Source: a phage
Direction: 5' to 3' (one strand)
Sequence record: PZ862964.1
Length of the DNA: 64,000 nt
Shown: one piece after another, positions 1 through 17,474 of the stretch
Position numbering within the stretch: the stretch's first letter is position 1
How the letters are laid out: every line of letters starts with the position of its first letter
Program-made: the position numbers and the translations under genes
The notes under the pieces: generated by a model
What the model was told of the DNA's origin: nothing
The model's database searches: none
What the model saw: the letters and a program-made list of their open reading frames with translations, nothing else

Positions 1-1435
<1,435 letters not shown>

Positions 1436-10974: not shown

Positions 10975-11243
10975 TGTTTGTTGTTCACACTATTTATGAA
11001 AATGAAGGTAATACTACACGTGATTACGGTCACGTAAATCAATTTTTTAGATGCAATCCAGAATTCCGAGCTCAAAAAGACGAACGAATTTTTAAAAAAT
11101 GTGTAGAGCAAGGTTTCATTTACGTCAAGCATTGGATGCAAGGAAATAAAGTTAGAACCACGTACCATAGGTCTTTGACTGAGCTTAATGATGAATTGAT
11201 TTATAATAGAGCTGTAAACCAAACTCTAAAGGATGAACAATGA
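10974..11243 (+). CDS. Hypothetical small protein
   Basis: 89-aa ORF immediately upstream of DNA ligase, overlapping junctions. Confidence 0.5.
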   Translation: MFVVHTIYENEGNTTRDYGHVNQFFRCNPEFRAQKDERIFKKCVEQGFIYVKHWMQGNKVRTTYHRSLTELNDELIYNRAVNQTLKDEQ

Positions 11244-12703
11244 TTCTTAAAATTCTGAACGAAATAGCATCTATTGGTTCAACTAAGCAGAAGCAAGCAA
11301 TTCTTGAAAAGAATAAAGATAATGAATTGCTCAAACGAGTATATCGTCTGACTTATTCTCGTGGGTTACAGTATTATATAAAGAAATGGCCTAAACCCGG
11401 TATTGCTACCCAGAGTTTTGGGATGCTGACTATTACCGATATGCTCGATTTTATTGAATTCACGTTAGCTACTCGGAAATTAACTGGAAATGCAGCAATT
11501 GAGGAATTAATCGGATATATCACCGATGGTAAAAAAGATGATGTTGAAGTATTACGTCGAGTAATGATGCGAGACCTTGAATGTGGTGCTTCTGTATCTA
11601 TTGCAAACAAAGTTTGGCCAGGTTTAATTCCTGAACAACCTCAAATGCTCGCAAGTTCTTATGATGAAAAAGGCATTAGTAAGAATATCAAATTTCCAGC
11701 CTTTGCCCAGTTAAAAGCTGATGGAGCTCGGTGTTTTGCTGAAGTTAGAGGTGATGAATTAGATGATGTTCGTCTTTTATCACGAGCTGGTAATGAATAT
11801 CTAGGATTAGATCTTCTTAAAGAAGAGTTAATCAAAATGACCGCTGAAGCCCGCCAGATTCATCCAGAAGGTGTGTTAATTGATGGCGAATTGGTATACC
11901 ATGAGCAAGTTAAAAAGGAGCCAGAAGGCCTAGATTTTCTTTTTGATGCTTATCCTGAAATTAGTAAAGCTAAAGAGTTTGCTGAAGTAGCTGAATCACG
12001 TACTACTTCTAATGGAATCGCTAATAAATCTTTAAAGGGAACTATTTCAGAAAAAGAAGCTCAATGCATGAAGTTTCAGGTCTGGGATTATGTTCCGTTG
12101 GTAGAAATATACGGTCTTCCAGCATTTCGTTTAAAATATGATGTACGTTTTTCTAAATTAGAACAAATGACATCAGGATATGATAAAGTAATTTTAATTG
12201 AAAACCAAGTAGTAAATAACCTAGATGAAGCTAAGGTAATTTATAAAAAGTATATTGACCAAGGTCTTGAAGGTATTATTCTCAAAAATATTGATGGATT
12301 ATGGGAAAATGCTCGTTCAAAAAATCTCTATAAATTTAAAGAAGTAATTGATGTTGATTTAAAAATTGTAGGAATTTATCCTCACCGTAAAGACCCTACT
12401 AAAGCAGGTGGATTTATTCTTGAGTCAGAGTGTGGAAAAATTAAGGTAAATGCTGGTTCAGGCTTAAAAGATAAAGCCGGCGTAAAATCACATGAACTTG
12501 ACCGTACTCGCATTATGGAAAACCAAAATTATTATATTGGAAAAATTCTAGAGTGCGAATGCAACGGTTGGTTAAAATCCGATGGCCGCACTGATTACGT
12601 TAAATTATTTCTTCCGATTGCGATTCGTTTACGCGAAGATAAAACTAAAGCTAATACGTTCGAAGATGTATTTGGTGATTTTCATGAGGTAACTGGTTTA
12701 TGA
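11240..12703 (+). CDS. 30: ATP-dependent DNA ligase (gp30)
   Basis: 487 aa; MILKILNEIASIGSTKQKQAILEKNKDNELLKRVYRLTYSRGLQYYIKKWPKPG... matches T4 DNA ligase as recalled, with adenylation-lysine context FAQLKADGARC. Confidence 0.97.
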   Translation: MILKILNEIASIGSTKQKQAILEKNKDNELLKRVYRLTYSRGLQYYIKKWPKPGIATQSFGMLTITDMLDFIEFTLATRKLTGNAAIEELIGYITDGKKDDVEVLRRVMMRDLECGASVSIANKVWPGLIPEQPQMLASSYDEKGISKNIKFPAFAQLKADGARCFAEVRGDELDDVRLLSRAGNEYLGLDLLKEELIKMTAEARQIHPEGVLIDGELVYHEQVKKEPEGLDFLFDAYPEISKAKEFAEVAESRTTSNGIANKSLKGTISEKEAQCMKFQVWDYVPLVEIYGLPAFRLKYDVRFSKLEQMTSGYDKVILIENQVVNNLDEAKVIYKKYIDQGLEGIILKNIDGLWENARSKNLYKFKEVIDVDLKIVGIYPHRKDPTKAGGFILESECGKIKVNAGSGLKDKAGVKSHELDRTRIMENQNYYIGKILECECNGWLKSDGRTDYVKLFLPIAIRLREDKTKANTFEDVFGDFHEVTGL

Positions 12704-12888
12704 AAGCTTACTTAGAAACAATTGTCGTGGCTCAAAAAGAAGGTGGAGATGTTTCTACTTCTGTATCACAAATCATGATTGAATTTATCGATGCATATGC
12801 TTATAATAAATTCACAGAAACTTTTGATGCTTATGAAAAAGGTCCAAAGTTTGAAATATATCGTACTCTCTTACCTATAGATTATTAA
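12700..12888 (+). CDS. Hypothetical small protein
   Basis: 62-aa ORF overlapping ligase stop (ATGA), followed by terminator. Confidence 0.5.
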   Translation: MKAYLETIVVAQKEGGDVSTSVSQIMIEFIDAYAYNKFTETFDAYEKGPKFEIYRTLLPIDY

Positions 12889-12910
12889 AGGCCTTCGGGC
12901 CTTTAATTTT
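12888..12910 (+). terminator. Rho-independent terminator
   Basis: aaaggcc-ttcg-ggccttt hairpin followed by aatttt. Confidence 0.7.
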
Positions 12911-12940
12911 ATAAATAGAATAAACACTAGAGAGGATATG

Positions 12941-15034
12941 ATGGAACTCATTACAGAATTATTTGACGAAGATACTACTCTTCCGATTACAAACTTAAAT
13001 CCAAAGAAGAAAATACCACAAATTTTTTCAGTTCATGTTGATGATGCAATTGAACAACCAGGCTTTCGTTTATGTACCTATACGTCTGGAGGTGATACTA
13101 ATCGTGATTTAAAGATGGGCGATAAAATGATGCATATTGTTCCTTTTACATTAACTGCTAAAGGTTCAATTGCTAAATTAAAAGGTCTTGGTCCAAGCCC
13201 AATTAATTATATCAATTCAGTTTTTACTGTTGCAATGCAAACAATGCGTCAGTATAAAATTGATGCTTGTATGCTCCGTATTCTTAAGTCTAAAACTGCT
13301 GGTCAAGCTAGACAAATTCAAGTTATTGCTGATAGACTTATCCGTAGTCGTTCAGGTGGCAGATACGTCCTTCTTAAGGAACTCTGGGATTACGATAAAA
13401 AGTATGCATATATTCTTATACATCGCAAAAATGTATCACTAGAAGACATTCCAGGAGTTCCGGAAATTAGTACCGAGCTCTTTACTAAAGTTGAATCGAA
13501 GGTCGGTGATGTTTATATCAATAAAGATACTGGAGCTCAAGTAACTAAAAATGAGGCAATTGCAGCATCTATTGCACAAGAAAATGATAAACGTTCTGAC
13601 CAAGCTGTAATCGTTAAAGTTAAAATTTCCCGTAGAGCAATTGCGCAAAGTCAATCGTTAGAGTCTTCTAGATTTGAAAGTGAATTATTCCAGAAGTATG
13701 AATCTACAGCAGCTAATTTTAATAAACCTGCTACCGCTCCTTTAATTCCCGAAGCAGAAGAAATGAAGCTTGGAATTAATTCATTAGCTTCTAAAACCAA
13801 GGCAGCAAAAATTATTGCCGAAGGAACTGCAGATGAACTTCATTATGACTATAAATTCTTTTCAAAAAGTGAGGTTAATGAAGTTTCTGAAAAAATTAAA
13901 GATGTAATTCTTAATGCGATTAAAAATGAACCAACTACTTCAATAAAATGTTTAGAGAAATACGCAGCAGCTGTTAATCAACTCTTTGAAGAATATAAAG
14001 ATAATTGGCTTGATAAACATAATAAAACTCGTAAAGGGCAGCCAGATGAAGTCTGGGAAGAAATGACTAAAAATTCCTGGAACGCAGCAAAAACTAAATT
14101 CCTCAAAAGAATGATTTATAGTTTTTCTGGAATTGGTGCAGGTCCAATGATTGATATTACTATTGCCCGTGATGGTTCTAAATATACTCCATCACAAAAG
14201 CGCGGCATTAGAGAGTATTGTGGTTCAGGATATACTGACATCAATAATCTTCTTTTAGGTCGTTACAATCCAGAACGATATGATGTAATGAGTGAAAAAG
14301 AAATTGAATCTGCTATAACTAATTTAGATTCAGCTTTTGAAAATGGTGACCGCATACCGGAAGGCATTACAGTTTATCGTGCTCAAAGTATGACTGCTCC
14401 TATATACGAAGCGCTAGTTAAAAATAAAGTGTTCTACTTCAGAAATTTTGTATCTACTTCTTTAACTCCTATCATTTTTGGACGTTTTGGAATTACACAT
14501 GCTGGTATTGGTCTTTTAGAACCAGAATCTCGCAATGAATTAACAGTTGATAAAAATGAAGAAGGAATAACTATTAATCCAAACGAAATAAGAGCGTATA
14601 AAGAAAATCCTGAATACGTTAAAGTTCAAATAGGATGGGCAATTGATGGAGCTCATAAAGTTAATGTTGTATATCCAGGAAGTCTCGGAATAGCAACAGA
14701 AGCTGAAGTTATTCTACCGCGTGGATTGATGGTCAAAGTTAATAAAATAACTGATGCTTCTAATAATGACGGAACAACATCTAATAATACAAAACTCATT
14801 CAAGCTGAAGTTATGACCACGGAAGAGCTCACCGAATCGGTAATCTATGATGGAGACCATTTAATGGAAACTGGTGAATTGGTTGCAATGACAGGTGATA
14901 TTGAAATAGAAGACAGAGTTGACTTTGCATCATTTGTTTCATCAAATGTTAAACAGAAAGTAGAATCATCTCTTGGAATTATTGCGTCTTGCATAGATAT
15001 TACAAACATGCCTTACAAGTTCGTTCAAGGATAA
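12941..15034 (+). CDS. alt: Alt-type ADP-ribosyltransferase (virion-packaged, injected)
   Basis: ~697 aa; N-terminus MELITELFDEDTTLPITNLNPKKKIPQIF as in T4 Alt (recalled); R-S-E ART motif elements (YRAQ, FVSTSL, EAEVILPRG). Confidence 0.85.
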   Translation: MELITELFDEDTTLPITNLNPKKKIPQIFSVHVDDAIEQPGFRLCTYTSGGDTNRDLKMGDKMMHIVPFTLTAKGSIAKLKGLGPSPINYINSVFTVAMQTMRQYKIDACMLRILKSKTAGQARQIQVIADRLIRSRSGGRYVLLKELWDYDKKYAYILIHRKNVSLEDIPGVPEISTELFTKVESKVGDVYINKDTGAQVTKNEAIAASIAQENDKRSDQAVIVKVKISRRAIAQSQSLESSRFESELFQKYESTAANFNKPATAPLIPEAEEMKLGINSLASKTKAAKIIAEGTADELHYDYKFFSKSEVNEVSEKIKDVILNAIKNEPTTSIKCLEKYAAAVNQLFEEYKDNWLDKHNKTRKGQPDEVWEEMTKNSWNAAKTKFLKRMIYSFSGIGAGPMIDITIARDGSKYTPSQKRGIREYCGSGYTDINNLLLGRYNPERYDVMSEKEIESAITNLDSAFENGDRIPEGITVYRAQSMTAPIYEALVKNKVFYFRNFVSTSLTPIIFGRFGITHAGIGLLEPESRNELTVDKNEEGITINPNEIRAYKENPEYVKVQIGWAIDGAHKVNVVYPGSLGIATEAEVILPRGLMVKVNKITDASNNDGTTSNNTKLIQAEVMTTEELTESVIYDGDHLMETGELVAMTGDIEIEDRVDFASFVSSNVKQKVESSLGIIASCIDITNMPYKFVQG

Positions 15035-15037
15035 ATC

Positions 15038-17095
15038 ATGGAACTTATTACAGAATTATTTGACGGCGCTTCGGCGCCGGTTGTTAACTTAAATCCTAAG
15101 CATAAAATACCTCAAATTTTTGCTATTCAAGCCGGTGAAGAAAGTGTGCTTCCTGGATTTAGATTTTGTACATACACCTCTGGTGGTGATACAAATAAAA
15201 ACGTTAAGCCAGGCGATAAAATGATGCATATCGTAATGATAGGTGTCAACGAGAAATTATCGCTGGTTAAGCTTAGAAACTTGGGTGGAAATCCAATTGG
15301 CGTCATTAATGCTGTTTTTGATACTGCTCTTCAAACAATGAAGCAGTACAAAATTGACGCGTGCTTATTCCGTGTACTAAAGAGTAAAACAAATGGCGCA
15401 GCTCGTCAAATGCAAGTTATTGCTGACCGTTTAGTACGTACTAAAGGAGCAGGTCGATATGTTCTTTTAAAGGAAATCTGGGACTATGATAAAAAGTATG
15501 CATATATTATGGTTTACCGTAAAAATGCCAATTTAGAAGACATTCCAGGTGTACCTCCTATTTCAACTGAGTTATTCACAAAAGTTGAATCAAAGGTTGG
15601 TGATGTTTATGTAGACGTTAAAACAGGTAATGCTGTTCCTAAAGCTGTCGCTGTTGCTGCTTCTATTGCTTTAGAAAATGATAAGCGCACTGATCAAGCT
15701 GTTATTCAGAAAACTAAAATTAGTCGTCGATTAGCAGCACAAGCTCAATATTCTACTGTTGATGCTTCACTTCAGGGCGATAGCTTCGCTGCCAAGAAAT
15801 ATCAAGAGTTTGAATCTAAAGTTCCGGTATATAAAGCAGAAGGACCAATGAACTCTGGCGTTATCCAGATTGGTTCAAACTTCAGCAAAGGAGCTATCGG
15901 TGGTATGAGAAGTGCTTCTCGTTTTAAATCTAATGATTATGAACTAGAAAGTTTCCGAAATCATATTGCATTAGCTCATGCACGTTTACGCGATCCATCT
16001 ATCAAGCTGCAGAGCGATATAACATATCAAGGTTCTCAAGAATATTTAAAGAATAAAGAATTTTTTGATTATAAAACTGATAAAATTTTAAGCGATCTTG
16101 CTGACATTAATATTTCTAATAGCTTTGATGTTATTAAGAAAATTATCAATGATTTAGTTAAAGGTTCTAAAGCTACATCAGATGAAAAGACAGCTATTAT
16201 TCAATTTGTAATGAATGGCATTTATAAATTGATTAATGAATCTGCTGCTCAGGCATATGAATACGCAAGCACCGAAGTAACTCCAAAAGGATTAACTCAA
16301 GCTGAATCTGATGTAATTGAAGATTATTGTGCAGATTCATATGTTGAAATGAACTCGTTCCTTTTGGGTAAACCAGATTCTACCCGTGAAGAATATATGG
16401 AACGAGCTATTAAACATATTGAGACGCTGGATTCTGCATTCGCCAAAGGATCAGTTCTTCCTCCAGGAACTACACTTTACCGTGGACAAGAAGTTACCTT
16501 TAAAACTTTGCGTCATAACATTGAAAATAAAATGTTCTATTTCAAGAACTTCGTATCGACATCACTTAAACCAAATATCTTCGGTGAGCATGGTAAAAAC
16601 TATATGGCTCTAGATGATTCCGGCGCAGTATTTTCTGGCGAAGGAGAAGGTTCCGTTGATGCAGAAGATTTAATGCATATGGGTAGTCATTCTACATATG
16701 CCAATGAAGATGCTGAAACTAGCGTGGGTATGGTAATTAAAGGAGCTGAGCGAATCAAAGTTATCGTTCCAGGTCATTTATCAGGATTTCCATCAGAAGC
16801 TGAAGTTATTCTACCGCGTGGAATTTTACTGAAGATTAATAAAGTAAGTACGTACTTTATGAAAGAAACTGCTTATAACAAGTATCTAATCGAAGGTACA
16901 ATCGTTCCTCCTTCTGAACAATTAGAAGAATCAGTATATGATGGAGACCATCTAATGGAAACTGGTGAAGTTCGTCCAATGGCTGGATTTAATCAATTCC
17001 TTGTAGAAGAATCAAAAGAAGAGGAAAACGAAGTTTCTCAAATCTTAGCTTCTTTGGTTAACATCAACGGAATGTCTAAAAAGTTCAAGATGTAG
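15038..17095 (+). CDS. Alt paralog, second ADP-ribosyltransferase
   Basis: 685 aa; N-terminal ~220 aa and C-terminal ART region clearly paralogous to the upstream alt (MELITELFD..., YKIDAC..., FVSTSLKP, EAEVILPRG, ESVYDGDHLMETGE); central region divergent. Confidence 0.8.
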   Translation: MELITELFDGASAPVVNLNPKHKIPQIFAIQAGEESVLPGFRFCTYTSGGDTNKNVKPGDKMMHIVMIGVNEKLSLVKLRNLGGNPIGVINAVFDTALQTMKQYKIDACLFRVLKSKTNGAARQMQVIADRLVRTKGAGRYVLLKEIWDYDKKYAYIMVYRKNANLEDIPGVPPISTELFTKVESKVGDVYVDVKTGNAVPKAVAVAASIALENDKRTDQAVIQKTKISRRLAAQAQYSTVDASLQGDSFAAKKYQEFESKVPVYKAEGPMNSGVIQIGSNFSKGAIGGMRSASRFKSNDYELESFRNHIALAHARLRDPSIKLQSDITYQGSQEYLKNKEFFDYKTDKILSDLADINISNSFDVIKKIINDLVKGSKATSDEKTAIIQFVMNGIYKLINESAAQAYEYASTEVTPKGLTQAESDVIEDYCADSYVEMNSFLLGKPDSTREEYMERAIKHIETLDSAFAKGSVLPPGTTLYRGQEVTFKTLRHNIENKMFYFKNFVSTSLKPNIFGEHGKNYMALDDSGAVFSGEGEGSVDAEDLMHMGSHSTYANEDAETSVGMVIKGAERIKVIVPGHLSGFPSEAEVILPRGILLKINKVSTYFMKETAYNKYLIEGTIVPPSEQLEESVYDGDHLMETGEVRPMAGFNQFLVEESKEEENEVSQILASLVNINGMSKKFKM

Positions 17096-17147
17096 TTTAC
17101 AAGTTCCTTATGTTGTGTTATAGTAGTCTTACTGACATAACATGAGG
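17095..17147 (+). promoter_or_regulatory. Early promoter stem-loop cassette (PeSL-like), near-identical to 1439-1491
   Basis: gtttac (17095-17100), 18-nt spacer, tatagt (17119-17124); inverted repeat ccttatgttgtg / cataacatgagg; RBS gagga then ATG 17156. Confidence 0.6.
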
Positions 17148-17155
17148 AACACAAA

Positions 17156-17446
17156 ATGAAATCTTCTTTACGCTTTTTAGGTCAAGAACTTGTAGTTGAA
17201 GGCGTTATTCCTGCTGATAATGCTTTTAATGAAGCAGTTTATGATGAATTTATCAAAATTTTTGGAACAGATAAAAAGTTCGGAATTTTTCCTTCTGAAA
17301 ATTTTTCAAAGCCAGAACAGACTGAAAGTATTTTTCAGGGTGTAGTAACAGGTAAATTTGAGTCAGAAGCTCCGGTAAAAATTGAAGTTTATATTGAAGA
17401 CAGTTTAGTTGCTTCAGTTGCTGCTTTCATTTCATTCCGTAAATAA
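17156..17446 (+). CDS. Hypothetical small early protein
   Basis: 96-aa ORF with dedicated promoter/RBS, last + strand gene before the late block. Confidence 0.6.
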   Translation: MKSSLRFLGQELVVEGVIPADNAFNEAVYDEFIKIFGTDKKFGIFPSENFSKPEQTESIFQGVVTGKFESEAPVKIEVYIEDSLVASVAAFISFRK

Positions 17447-17452
17447 AAATAT

Positions 17453-17470
17453 GGGGACCGAAAGGTCCCC
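17453..17470. terminator. Bidirectional terminator hairpin between convergent genes
   Basis: ggggacc-gaaa-ggtcccc; U-rich tract on the - strand side (aaataaaaatat upstream in + orientation). Confidence 0.7.
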
Positions 17471-17474
17471 ATTG

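Follow-up and report, generated by a model that had tools for sequence, protein, structure and literature searches.

Does a phage with two adjacent alt genes send one kind of ADP-ribosyltransferase (ART) into its host, or two enzymes with different targets? The question arises at positions 12,941–17,095 of a 64,000-nucleotide stretch of phage DNA (record PZ862964.1; the whole stretch is called the window here), where two open reading frames (ORFs), ORF1 and ORF2, encode proteins of the type of phage T4 Alt. Our analysis indicates that they probably make up a late operon in which both genes are intact and encode arginine-specific mono-ADP-ribosyltransferases of the Alt type; the two products would both be packaged into the head, trimmed by the gp21 prohead protease and injected, each with a target set of its own. 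The two-gene arrangement is ordinary for the genus Tequatrovirus, and the window is another member of the majority genotype.

Two intact genes of the Alt family

The window carries a Tequatrovirus (T-even) genome segment: a 6-kb query around the alt pair matched 550 phage records, 390 of which covered at least 80% of it, and the top match was 97.9% identical. Coordinates, strand and lengths of the adjacent ORFs of 697 and 685 aa agreed with a reading made beforehand from the sequence (the original prediction), and 3 nt separate the two genes, which lie on the same strand. An alternative ATG for ORF1 is present one codon upstream, at 12938; position 12941 is the better start, since the GAGAGGA Shine-Dalgarno sequence lies only 1 nt from 12938 and the T4, RB32 and T2 annotations begin with MELITE.

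The two proteins aligned over their full length (40% identity, E = 4e-158), with 67% identity in the N-terminal region (residues 1–237), ~10–15% in the centre (238–420), 37% in the ART region (421–628) and 42% in the tail. This bears out both the conserved N-terminal ~220 aa and the divergent central segments described in the original prediction; when profiles of the two centres were built separately and compared with hhalign, no homology between them was found (probability 0.4%, E = 0.17). Profile matches assign both proteins to the Alt family (PHROG 802; the Alt/VIP2 clade of R-S-E ADP-ribosyltransferases), and the ART fold of that family was recognised in both. PF03496 (ADPrib_exo_Tox) matched ORF1 at 127.1 bits (6.9e-37) and ORF2 at 72.0 bits (5.4e-20), with a gathering cutoff of 23.4 bits, and the 674-position profile of PHROG 802, 'Alt-like RNA polymerase ADP-ribosyltransferase', covered residues 1–696 of ORF1 (2.6e-273) and 1–685 of ORF2 (3.1e-256).

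The R, STS and ExE elements that had been proposed for a C-terminal ART region were all found, as YRAQ (479–482), FVSTS (503–507) and EAEVILPRG (587–595) in ORF1 and as YRGQ (481–484), FVSTS (505–509) and EAEVILPRG (587–595) in ORF2. The arginine, both serines and both glutamates do not vary in either of two family alignments, one of 19 and one of 17 sequences. When ORF1 was aligned with the solved toxin CdtA, R480 fell on the YR of the toxin and the ExE on its EYE; ExE is a motif typical of arginine-modifying ARTs (PMC8120803).

We considered whether ORF2 could be a functionless copy in decay or an artefact of sequencing or assembly, as might be suspected from T4, which has only a broken remnant of it. 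This is contradicted by the finding that its 685-codon frame was open in seven of seven independent genomes, that tblastn gave a full-length match at 95% or more amino acid identity in 397 phage records, that dN/dS was 0.016–0.064 over 21 pairs from the seven genomes (dS 0.11–0.26), and that the catalytic residues are invariant. ORF2 is therefore not a pseudogene, and we give the decay or artefact explanation hardly any credence. The original prediction had named two outcomes that would speak against it, a second ORF lacking the ART catalytic residues and a second ORF that is a frameshifted pseudogene; neither was observed. ORF1 had similar dN/dS values (0.034–0.094).

A common architecture with divergent centres

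Both proteins have the same four-part build, consisting of a 6-residue propeptide with an N-domain of ~230 aa, an all-helical centre of ~180 aa, an R-S-ExE ART and a tail of ~55–65 aa, which begins at an LxE motif and bears an invariant YDGDHLMETGE (module boundaries in Table 1). AlphaFold models (pLDDT 74.7 for ORF2 and 72.0 for ORF1) gave the same layout for both, with an alpha/beta N-domain at ~12–216, an all-helical part at ~248–468, predicted with the highest confidence in each model, the ART at ~478–625 and a disordered tail. Both centres are thus predicted to be helical despite the absence of detectable homology. Within the ART, the most variable part is an insert of ~50 aa between STS and ExE (3–16% identity, ORF1 versus ORF2), which is poorly predicted in the models (pLDDT <50 in ORF1) and which would occupy the place where C3-like toxins have their substrate-recognition loops. 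Sequence and profile searches of Pfam, NCBIfam, PADLOC and PDB for a function of the N-domain or of the helical centres returned only the ART domain. The model PF26846.1 is precomputed alongside PF03496 on all full-length homologues and may describe another Alt-specific region.

Since the centres of the two proteins are unrelated, and so are their ART inserts, the most economical view is that the target sets differ, and it is reasonable to think that ORF1 and ORF2 act on different targets. Alternatively, ORF2 may be packaged and active as an ART but repeat the work of Alt on the same targets, as an extra dose or a backup. Architecture, ExE motif and N-domain are indeed alike in the two genes, and ORF2 has been lost without obvious cost in T4-type phages. 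However, a plain dosage copy would be expected to stay similar or to decay, whereas purifying selection is equally strong on both genes, no homology is detectable between the centres, identity in the ART domains is only 37%, and Tequatrovirus and Dhakavirus have both maintained two separate cargo classes in one and the same gene order. We consider simple duplication unlikely.

A second alternative concerns chemistry: ORF2 might modify a substrate other than arginine (RNA, DNA or a small molecule), or attach NAD-capped RNA as ModB does. Other R-S-E ARTs, Scabin and others, modify nucleic acids (PMC8120803), T4 ModB is reported to RNAylate proteins (PMC10468400), and the centre of ORF2 is unique. 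Against this stand the ExE motif, characteristic of arginine-modifying ARTs (PMC8120803), the closest folds, which are protein-arginine or protein-asparagine transferases, and the domain and profile searches, which detected no nucleic-acid-binding domain; a non-arginine substrate appears very improbable. Our preferred reading is still that of two arginine-specific enzymes with separate target sets.

Probable late co-transcription of the pair

A T4-type late promoter motif, TATAAATA, stands upstream of ORF1 and is the sole plus-strand copy between 7415 and 23736; it is therefore the candidate promoter for both alt genes. The G+C-rich hairpin on the 3' side of alt.1, a probable terminator between the early ligase/alt.1 unit and the alt genes, folds at −13.5 kcal/mol (z −3.33), a value equalled by none of 200 shuffles. 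This hairpin was absent from the list of a consensus terminator scan and was checked by folding instead. T4 has the same promoter and hairpin arrangement upstream of alt. From the alt pair up to 17451, the scan gave no terminator-like site on the plus strand. Because there is one TATAAATA, a 3-nt gap between the genes, an AAGGA of ORF2's own and no plus-strand terminator before 17451, ORF1 and ORF2 are likely to be co-transcribed late. At the level of the motif, this amounts to late transcription next to baseplate genes, the locus lying between gene 30/alt.1 and alt.-3/54/48/29.

Predicted packaging, processing and injection

T4 Alt is a head core protein of ~40 copies, which gp21 cuts after ITE-6 and, as seen by mass spectrometry, after LTE-619, so that 63 C-terminal residues are removed (PMC5694885). 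Candidate gp21 motifs were found at both ends of both window proteins, ITE at residues 4–6 in each and LTE in ORF1 or LEE in ORF2 at the C-terminal position, and E6 and E631 of ORF2 are invariant in the family. This pattern, the late promoter motif and the shared N-domain give indirect support to packaging and injection of both proteins, which are likely. The targets of T4 Alt comprise RNA polymerase alpha (R265), MazF (R84), EF-Tu and about two dozen other proteins, and NAD+-dependent modification of RNA polymerase alpha R265 and other host proteins is known for T4 Alt alone (PMC8120803). The E577A mutant of T4 Alt is without ADP-ribosylation (PMC11404850). In the 682-aa numbering of T4 Alt, position 577 is not a glutamate and the ExE is E574/E576; E577 would be the second glutamate of ExE if residues were counted from the upstream ATG, which is also present in T4.

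We propose that both genes would be transcribed late from the single TATAAATA promoter, and that both proteins would enter the prohead core via their shared N-terminal part, be trimmed by gp21 at both ends to about 625 residues and be ejected into the host along with the DNA. In the new host each enzyme would use NAD+ to ADP-ribosylate arginines of its own set of host proteins; the choice would lie with the helical centres and the ART inserts, which are unrelated in the two proteins. For ORF2, packaging, cleavage, injection, enzyme activity and distinct targets are all inferred.

Several points weigh against this proposal. The structure models are of only moderate confidence (pLDDT 72–75) and were built on shallow alignments of 17–19 sequences; the LxE/IxE motifs are short and are found elsewhere in both proteins too; and literature searches on the ORF2-type paralogue found no virion proteomics, biochemistry or genetics. 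Moreover, T4 grows well without the second gene and the T4-type deletion is present in 91 of 500 records, so that the gene is dispensable, at least on laboratory hosts.

ORF2 could also be an active ART that is not injected, and that either acts late in the producing cell or is mainly a structural component of the head core. The late promoter context would suit such a role, as would the core-protein role that Alt also has (PMC11404850), and no demonstration of packaging of the second gene product was found in the literature. Yet ORF2 has conserved the Alt N-domain and the gp21 motif at either end, features for which a cytoplasmic protein would have no obvious use; we regard a non-injected ORF2 as distinctly improbable, and keep to packaging and injection of both proteins.

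Different clustering of N-domain and cargo

Eleven Alt proteins from Tequatrovirus, Dhakavirus, Biquartavirus and Krischvirus were compared, the window locus against loci L008, L009 and L010 among them. N-domains clustered by genus, with 55–67% identity between paralogues of one genome and 42–47% between Tequatrovirus and Dhakavirus for any paralogues, whereas centre and ART clustered by gene position across genera, with a between-class identity of 33–38%. ORF1 and the Dhakavirus protein PSD2002_b were 94% identical in the ART and 65% in the centre; for ORF2 against PSD2002_c or EcWhh-1_2 the values were 57–58% and 46%. The pattern is consistent with an ancient duplication after which N-domains were homogenised within each lineage; repeated swapping of cargo onto lineage-specific N-domains would be less parsimonious.

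Over aa ~400–640 of ORF1 (~14140–14860), identity to PSD2002_b, the middle alt gene of its array (L008:2916-4997), was 81–93% in nucleotides and 85–98% in amino acids, while in the same comparison gp54, gp48 and alt.-3 were 59–65% identical in amino acids and the N-domain 32–52%. Because the identity of the cassette lies far above that of the flanking proteins, a recent exchange between genera seems to have occurred, and there is evidence that the ART cassette of ORF1 was exchanged fairly recently with a Dhakavirus, with a 3' boundary near LTE/YDGDHLMETGE. The first gene is polymorphic within Tequatrovirus, at 95% or more identity to the ORF1 allele in 293 records and at 60–80%, where the T4-type allele falls, in 212. 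By comparison, there is hardly any polymorphism in the second gene.

Straboviridae differ in how many genes the alt array contains. Phage PSD2002 has three tandem full-length copies (L008:1012-7124), Aeromonas phage 31.2 has two copies (L010:2549-6426), and Krischvirus MIZ3 has one full copy and a stand-alone ART of 274 aa (L011:2911-5865).

A search of 1.84 billion representative proteins found the Alt N-domain in about 69 clusters, always N-terminal, and PF03496 was present in all seven full-size members scanned (563–786 aa). For three distant N-domain homologues, P0183, P0184 and P0185, neither Pfam nor PHROGs gave an ART match; in P0184 (541 aa) the C-terminal half is unrelated, and P0183 (485 aa) has at its end a region that is ART-like but degenerate (LYK / YTSCS / NSEIVLPRG). 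Because these few homologues lack a Pfam or PHROGs ART match, the N-domain may carry other cargo.

The different clustering of N-domain and cargo, the ART cassette that ORF1 shares with Dhakavirus and the N-domains without an ART match allow a broader hypothesis, which we put forward tentatively. Tandem Alt genes may constitute a modular injected-effector system in which a lineage-specific N-domain, similar between the paralogues of any one genome, serves delivery, and an exchangeable cargo of helical centre and ART passes from genus to genus; ORF2 would then hit another host or defence target than Alt, and its loss in T4 would add to the known differences in host range or defence sensitivity between T4 and T2/T6.

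Origin of the T4 remnant

The original prediction had left in doubt whether T4 has a second full-length copy. Alignment settled this: downstream of alt, T4 has only the short ORFs alt.-1 (61 aa) and alt.-2 (67 aa). Both align with the first ~116 codons of ORF2, and not of T4 Alt, the DNA being nearly identical; likewise, PHROGs 23015 and 15247, which hold T4 alt.-1 and alt.-2, matched ORF2 at 2e-40 and 1e-37 versus 1e-21 and 2e-19 for ORF1. T4 is without 1,699 bp (15377–17075), that is, one copy of a 9-bp direct repeat plus 1,690 bp, which looks like a microhomology-mediated deletion.

Of 500 matching records, 91 had the T4-type junction; the rest, T2, T6 and RB32 among them, have an intact second gene, on which the junction query splits. 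With an intact gene in most records, two full genes are the majority state and T4 is derived. The GenBank note for T4 explains alt.-1 and alt.-2 as a duplicated first part of alt, and that for RB32 describes the full gene as an 'apparent insertion'. Our comparison points to a deletion in the T4 lineage, from a full-length gene, as the origin of the remnant.

Features and neighbours of the locus

Table 1 Annotated features of the alt locus, by position in the window; residue numbers refer to the encoded proteins.
Feature	Position	Strand	Basis
Gene 30, DNA ligase	11240-12703	+	
alt.1, 62 aa	12700-12888	+	
G+C-rich hairpin 3' of alt.1, probable terminator	12884-12907	+	fold and sequence
TATAAATA, T4-type late promoter motif	12910-12917	+	motif
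GAGAGGA, Shine-Dalgarno for ORF1	12930-12936	+	sequence inspection
ORF1, alt, T2/RB32-type allele, 697 aa	12941-15034	+	
ORF1 modules: propeptide 1-6 (ITE 4-6); alpha/beta N-domain to ~237; helical centre ~238-415; ART ~416-629; LTE 630-632; C-terminal tail 633-697			
ORF1 R480 codon, R-S-E triad	14378-14380	+	CdtA alignment; invariant column
ORF1 S505-T506-S507	14453-14461	+	motif; family alignment
ORF1 STS-ExE insert, aa ~511-565	14471-14635	+	
ORF1 E587-A-E589 (ExE, arginine-specific ARTT motif)	14699-14707	+	aligned to CdtA EYE
ORF1 LTE 630-632, counterpart of T4 Alt LTE-619 gp21 site	14828-14836	+	motif alignment
AAGGA, Shine-Dalgarno for ORF2, within the final codons of ORF1, 6 nt upstream of ATG	15027-15031	+	
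ORF2, second Alt paralogue (RB32 'alt.-2'), 685 aa	15038-17095	+	
ORF2 modules: ITE 4-6; alpha/beta N-domain to ~237; helical centre 238-420; ART 421-628; LEE 629-631; tail 632-685			
A5 run in ORF2; A4 in T4, a 1-nt frameshift that splits the remnant into alt.-1/alt.-2	15197-15201	+	
CTAAAGAGT, left copy of 9-bp direct repeat, T4 deletion junction	15377-15385	+	
ORF2 R482 codon	16481-16483	+	motif; family alignment
ORF2 S507-T508-S509	16556-16564	+	motif; family alignment
ORF2 STS-ExE insert, aa ~513-565	16574-16732	+	
ORF2 E587-A-E589	16796-16804	+	motif; family alignment
ORF2 LEE 629-631, LxE at the position of the T4 Alt C-terminal gp21 site	16922-16930	+	motif alignment
CTAAAAAGT, right copy of 9-bp direct repeat	17076-17084	+	
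alt.-3, 96 aa, DUF5498	17156-17446	+	
Genes 54, 48 and 29, after alt.-3		-	

Among the neighbours, alt.1 matched Pfam PF24647, 'Phage blade protein' (7.5e-29), and PHROG 1976. Directly past the stop codon of ORF2, alt.-3 has a promoter of its own of sigma-70/T4-early-like type (TTTACA, a 17-nt spacer and TATAGT with TG; 17096–17124), and a bidirectional terminator follows downstream of alt.-3 at 17451–17472. In T4, Alt.-3 mutants with a C-terminal extension escape the CmdTAC defence system (PMC11618068).

Prior knowledge and significance

The tandem Alt pair was already known, since it is annotated in RefSeq and mentioned in papers: RefSeq names both genes 'Alt-like RNA polymerase ADP-ribosyltransferase' (twice) in many records. 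Koch and Rüger (Virology 1994) reportedly compared the alt genes of T2, T4 and T6. Nolan et al. (2006) described T4 alt.-1/alt.-2 and ORFs of RB49 and 44RR as paralogous duplications of alt, that of 44RR being full-length (PMC1524935), and a 2026 genome paper noted that a Tequatrovirus has two Alt-like paralogues with 43% identity and suggested that they have diverged in function (PMC13600099). For the second paralogue, our literature search found only these genome-annotation remarks and no experimental work. What is added here is the clustering of the N-domain by genus and of the cargo by gene position, together with the apparent exchange of the ORF1 ART with Dhakavirus.

Almost all that is known of injected phage ADP-ribosyltransferases comes from T4, which belongs to the minority type without the second gene, while T2, T6 and about 400 sequenced relatives have a gene for a second enzyme, which is strongly conserved and differs in its putative target-recognition region. 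If injected, this enzyme would bring to the early takeover of the host by most T-even phages one activity more than the textbook account of T4 contains, and it could confound work in which T2/T6 and T4 are compared on defence systems. In practice the gain is modest: ORF2 becomes a clear, inexpensive target for knock-out and ADP-ribosyl-proteomics and no new kind of system is involved.

Comparison with known systems

The closest known system is T4 Alt itself (AAD42533 / UniProt P12726). ORF1 is its positional orthologue, with an N-domain 100% and a tail 97% identical and the same motifs, and the two loci share the promoter and hairpin context and the neighbouring ligase, alt.1, alt.-3 and gene 54. 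Overall, ORF1 is 68.7% identical to T4 Alt and 97–99% identical to the alt proteins of RB32 and T2; because its centre and ART are only 34% and 66% identical to those of T4 Alt, it represents a different allele, of the T2/RB32 type. ORF2 has the whole architecture and both protease motifs in common with T4 Alt, with an N-domain 66–67% identical, but is only 41–42% identical overall and has a centre that is not detectably related. T4 alt.-1/alt.-2 is frame-split and shortened by the deletion, whereas ORF2 is a whole gene. RB32, with alt and 'alt.-2', and T2 and T6, with their second alt genes, have the same two genes in the same place at 97–99% identity, without substantive difference.

The tandem alt arrays of Dhakavirus ('alta'/'altb' of JS10, three genes in PSD2002, two in EcWhh-1) occupy the same locus between ligase and gene 54, and their cargo classes correspond by position as orthologues. 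They differ in their N-domains, which are 42–47% identical across genera versus 61–67% within a genome, and PSD2002 has a third cargo class.

Outside the phages, the C3-like, Vis and binary toxins (CDTa, iota Ia, VIP2, C2-I) have the ART fold and the R/STS/ExE active site in common with the Alt pair. The latter has neither a secretion signal nor a B component, and delivery would be by ejection from the phage head. The Alt proteins were not classed with the binary toxins, which have two tandem ART-fold domains, an N-terminal adaptor and a C-terminal catalytic one, and work with a pore-forming B component: the toxin alignments extend over no more than ~240 columns or ~200 residues, roughly the length of a single ART domain, and the N-terminal part of the Alt pair is thus unmatched by the two-domain toxins. 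Nor do they belong with T4 ModA/ModB, which are single-domain proteins of ~200 aa, early and unpackaged, since both are ~690 aa long, with four modules and a late promoter motif.

In the predicted logic of delivery, the Alt pair is like the T4 internal proteins IPI–IPIII, which are head-packaged, gp21-processed, injected and hypervariable anti-restriction proteins (PMC5694885, PMC12373910): a propeptide cut by gp21, co-injection with the DNA and a variable cargo would be common to both. IPI–IPIII are, however, small non-enzymatic inhibitors with a targeting peptide of 10–20 residues, whereas the Alt proteins are enzymes of ~690 aa with a large conserved N-domain.

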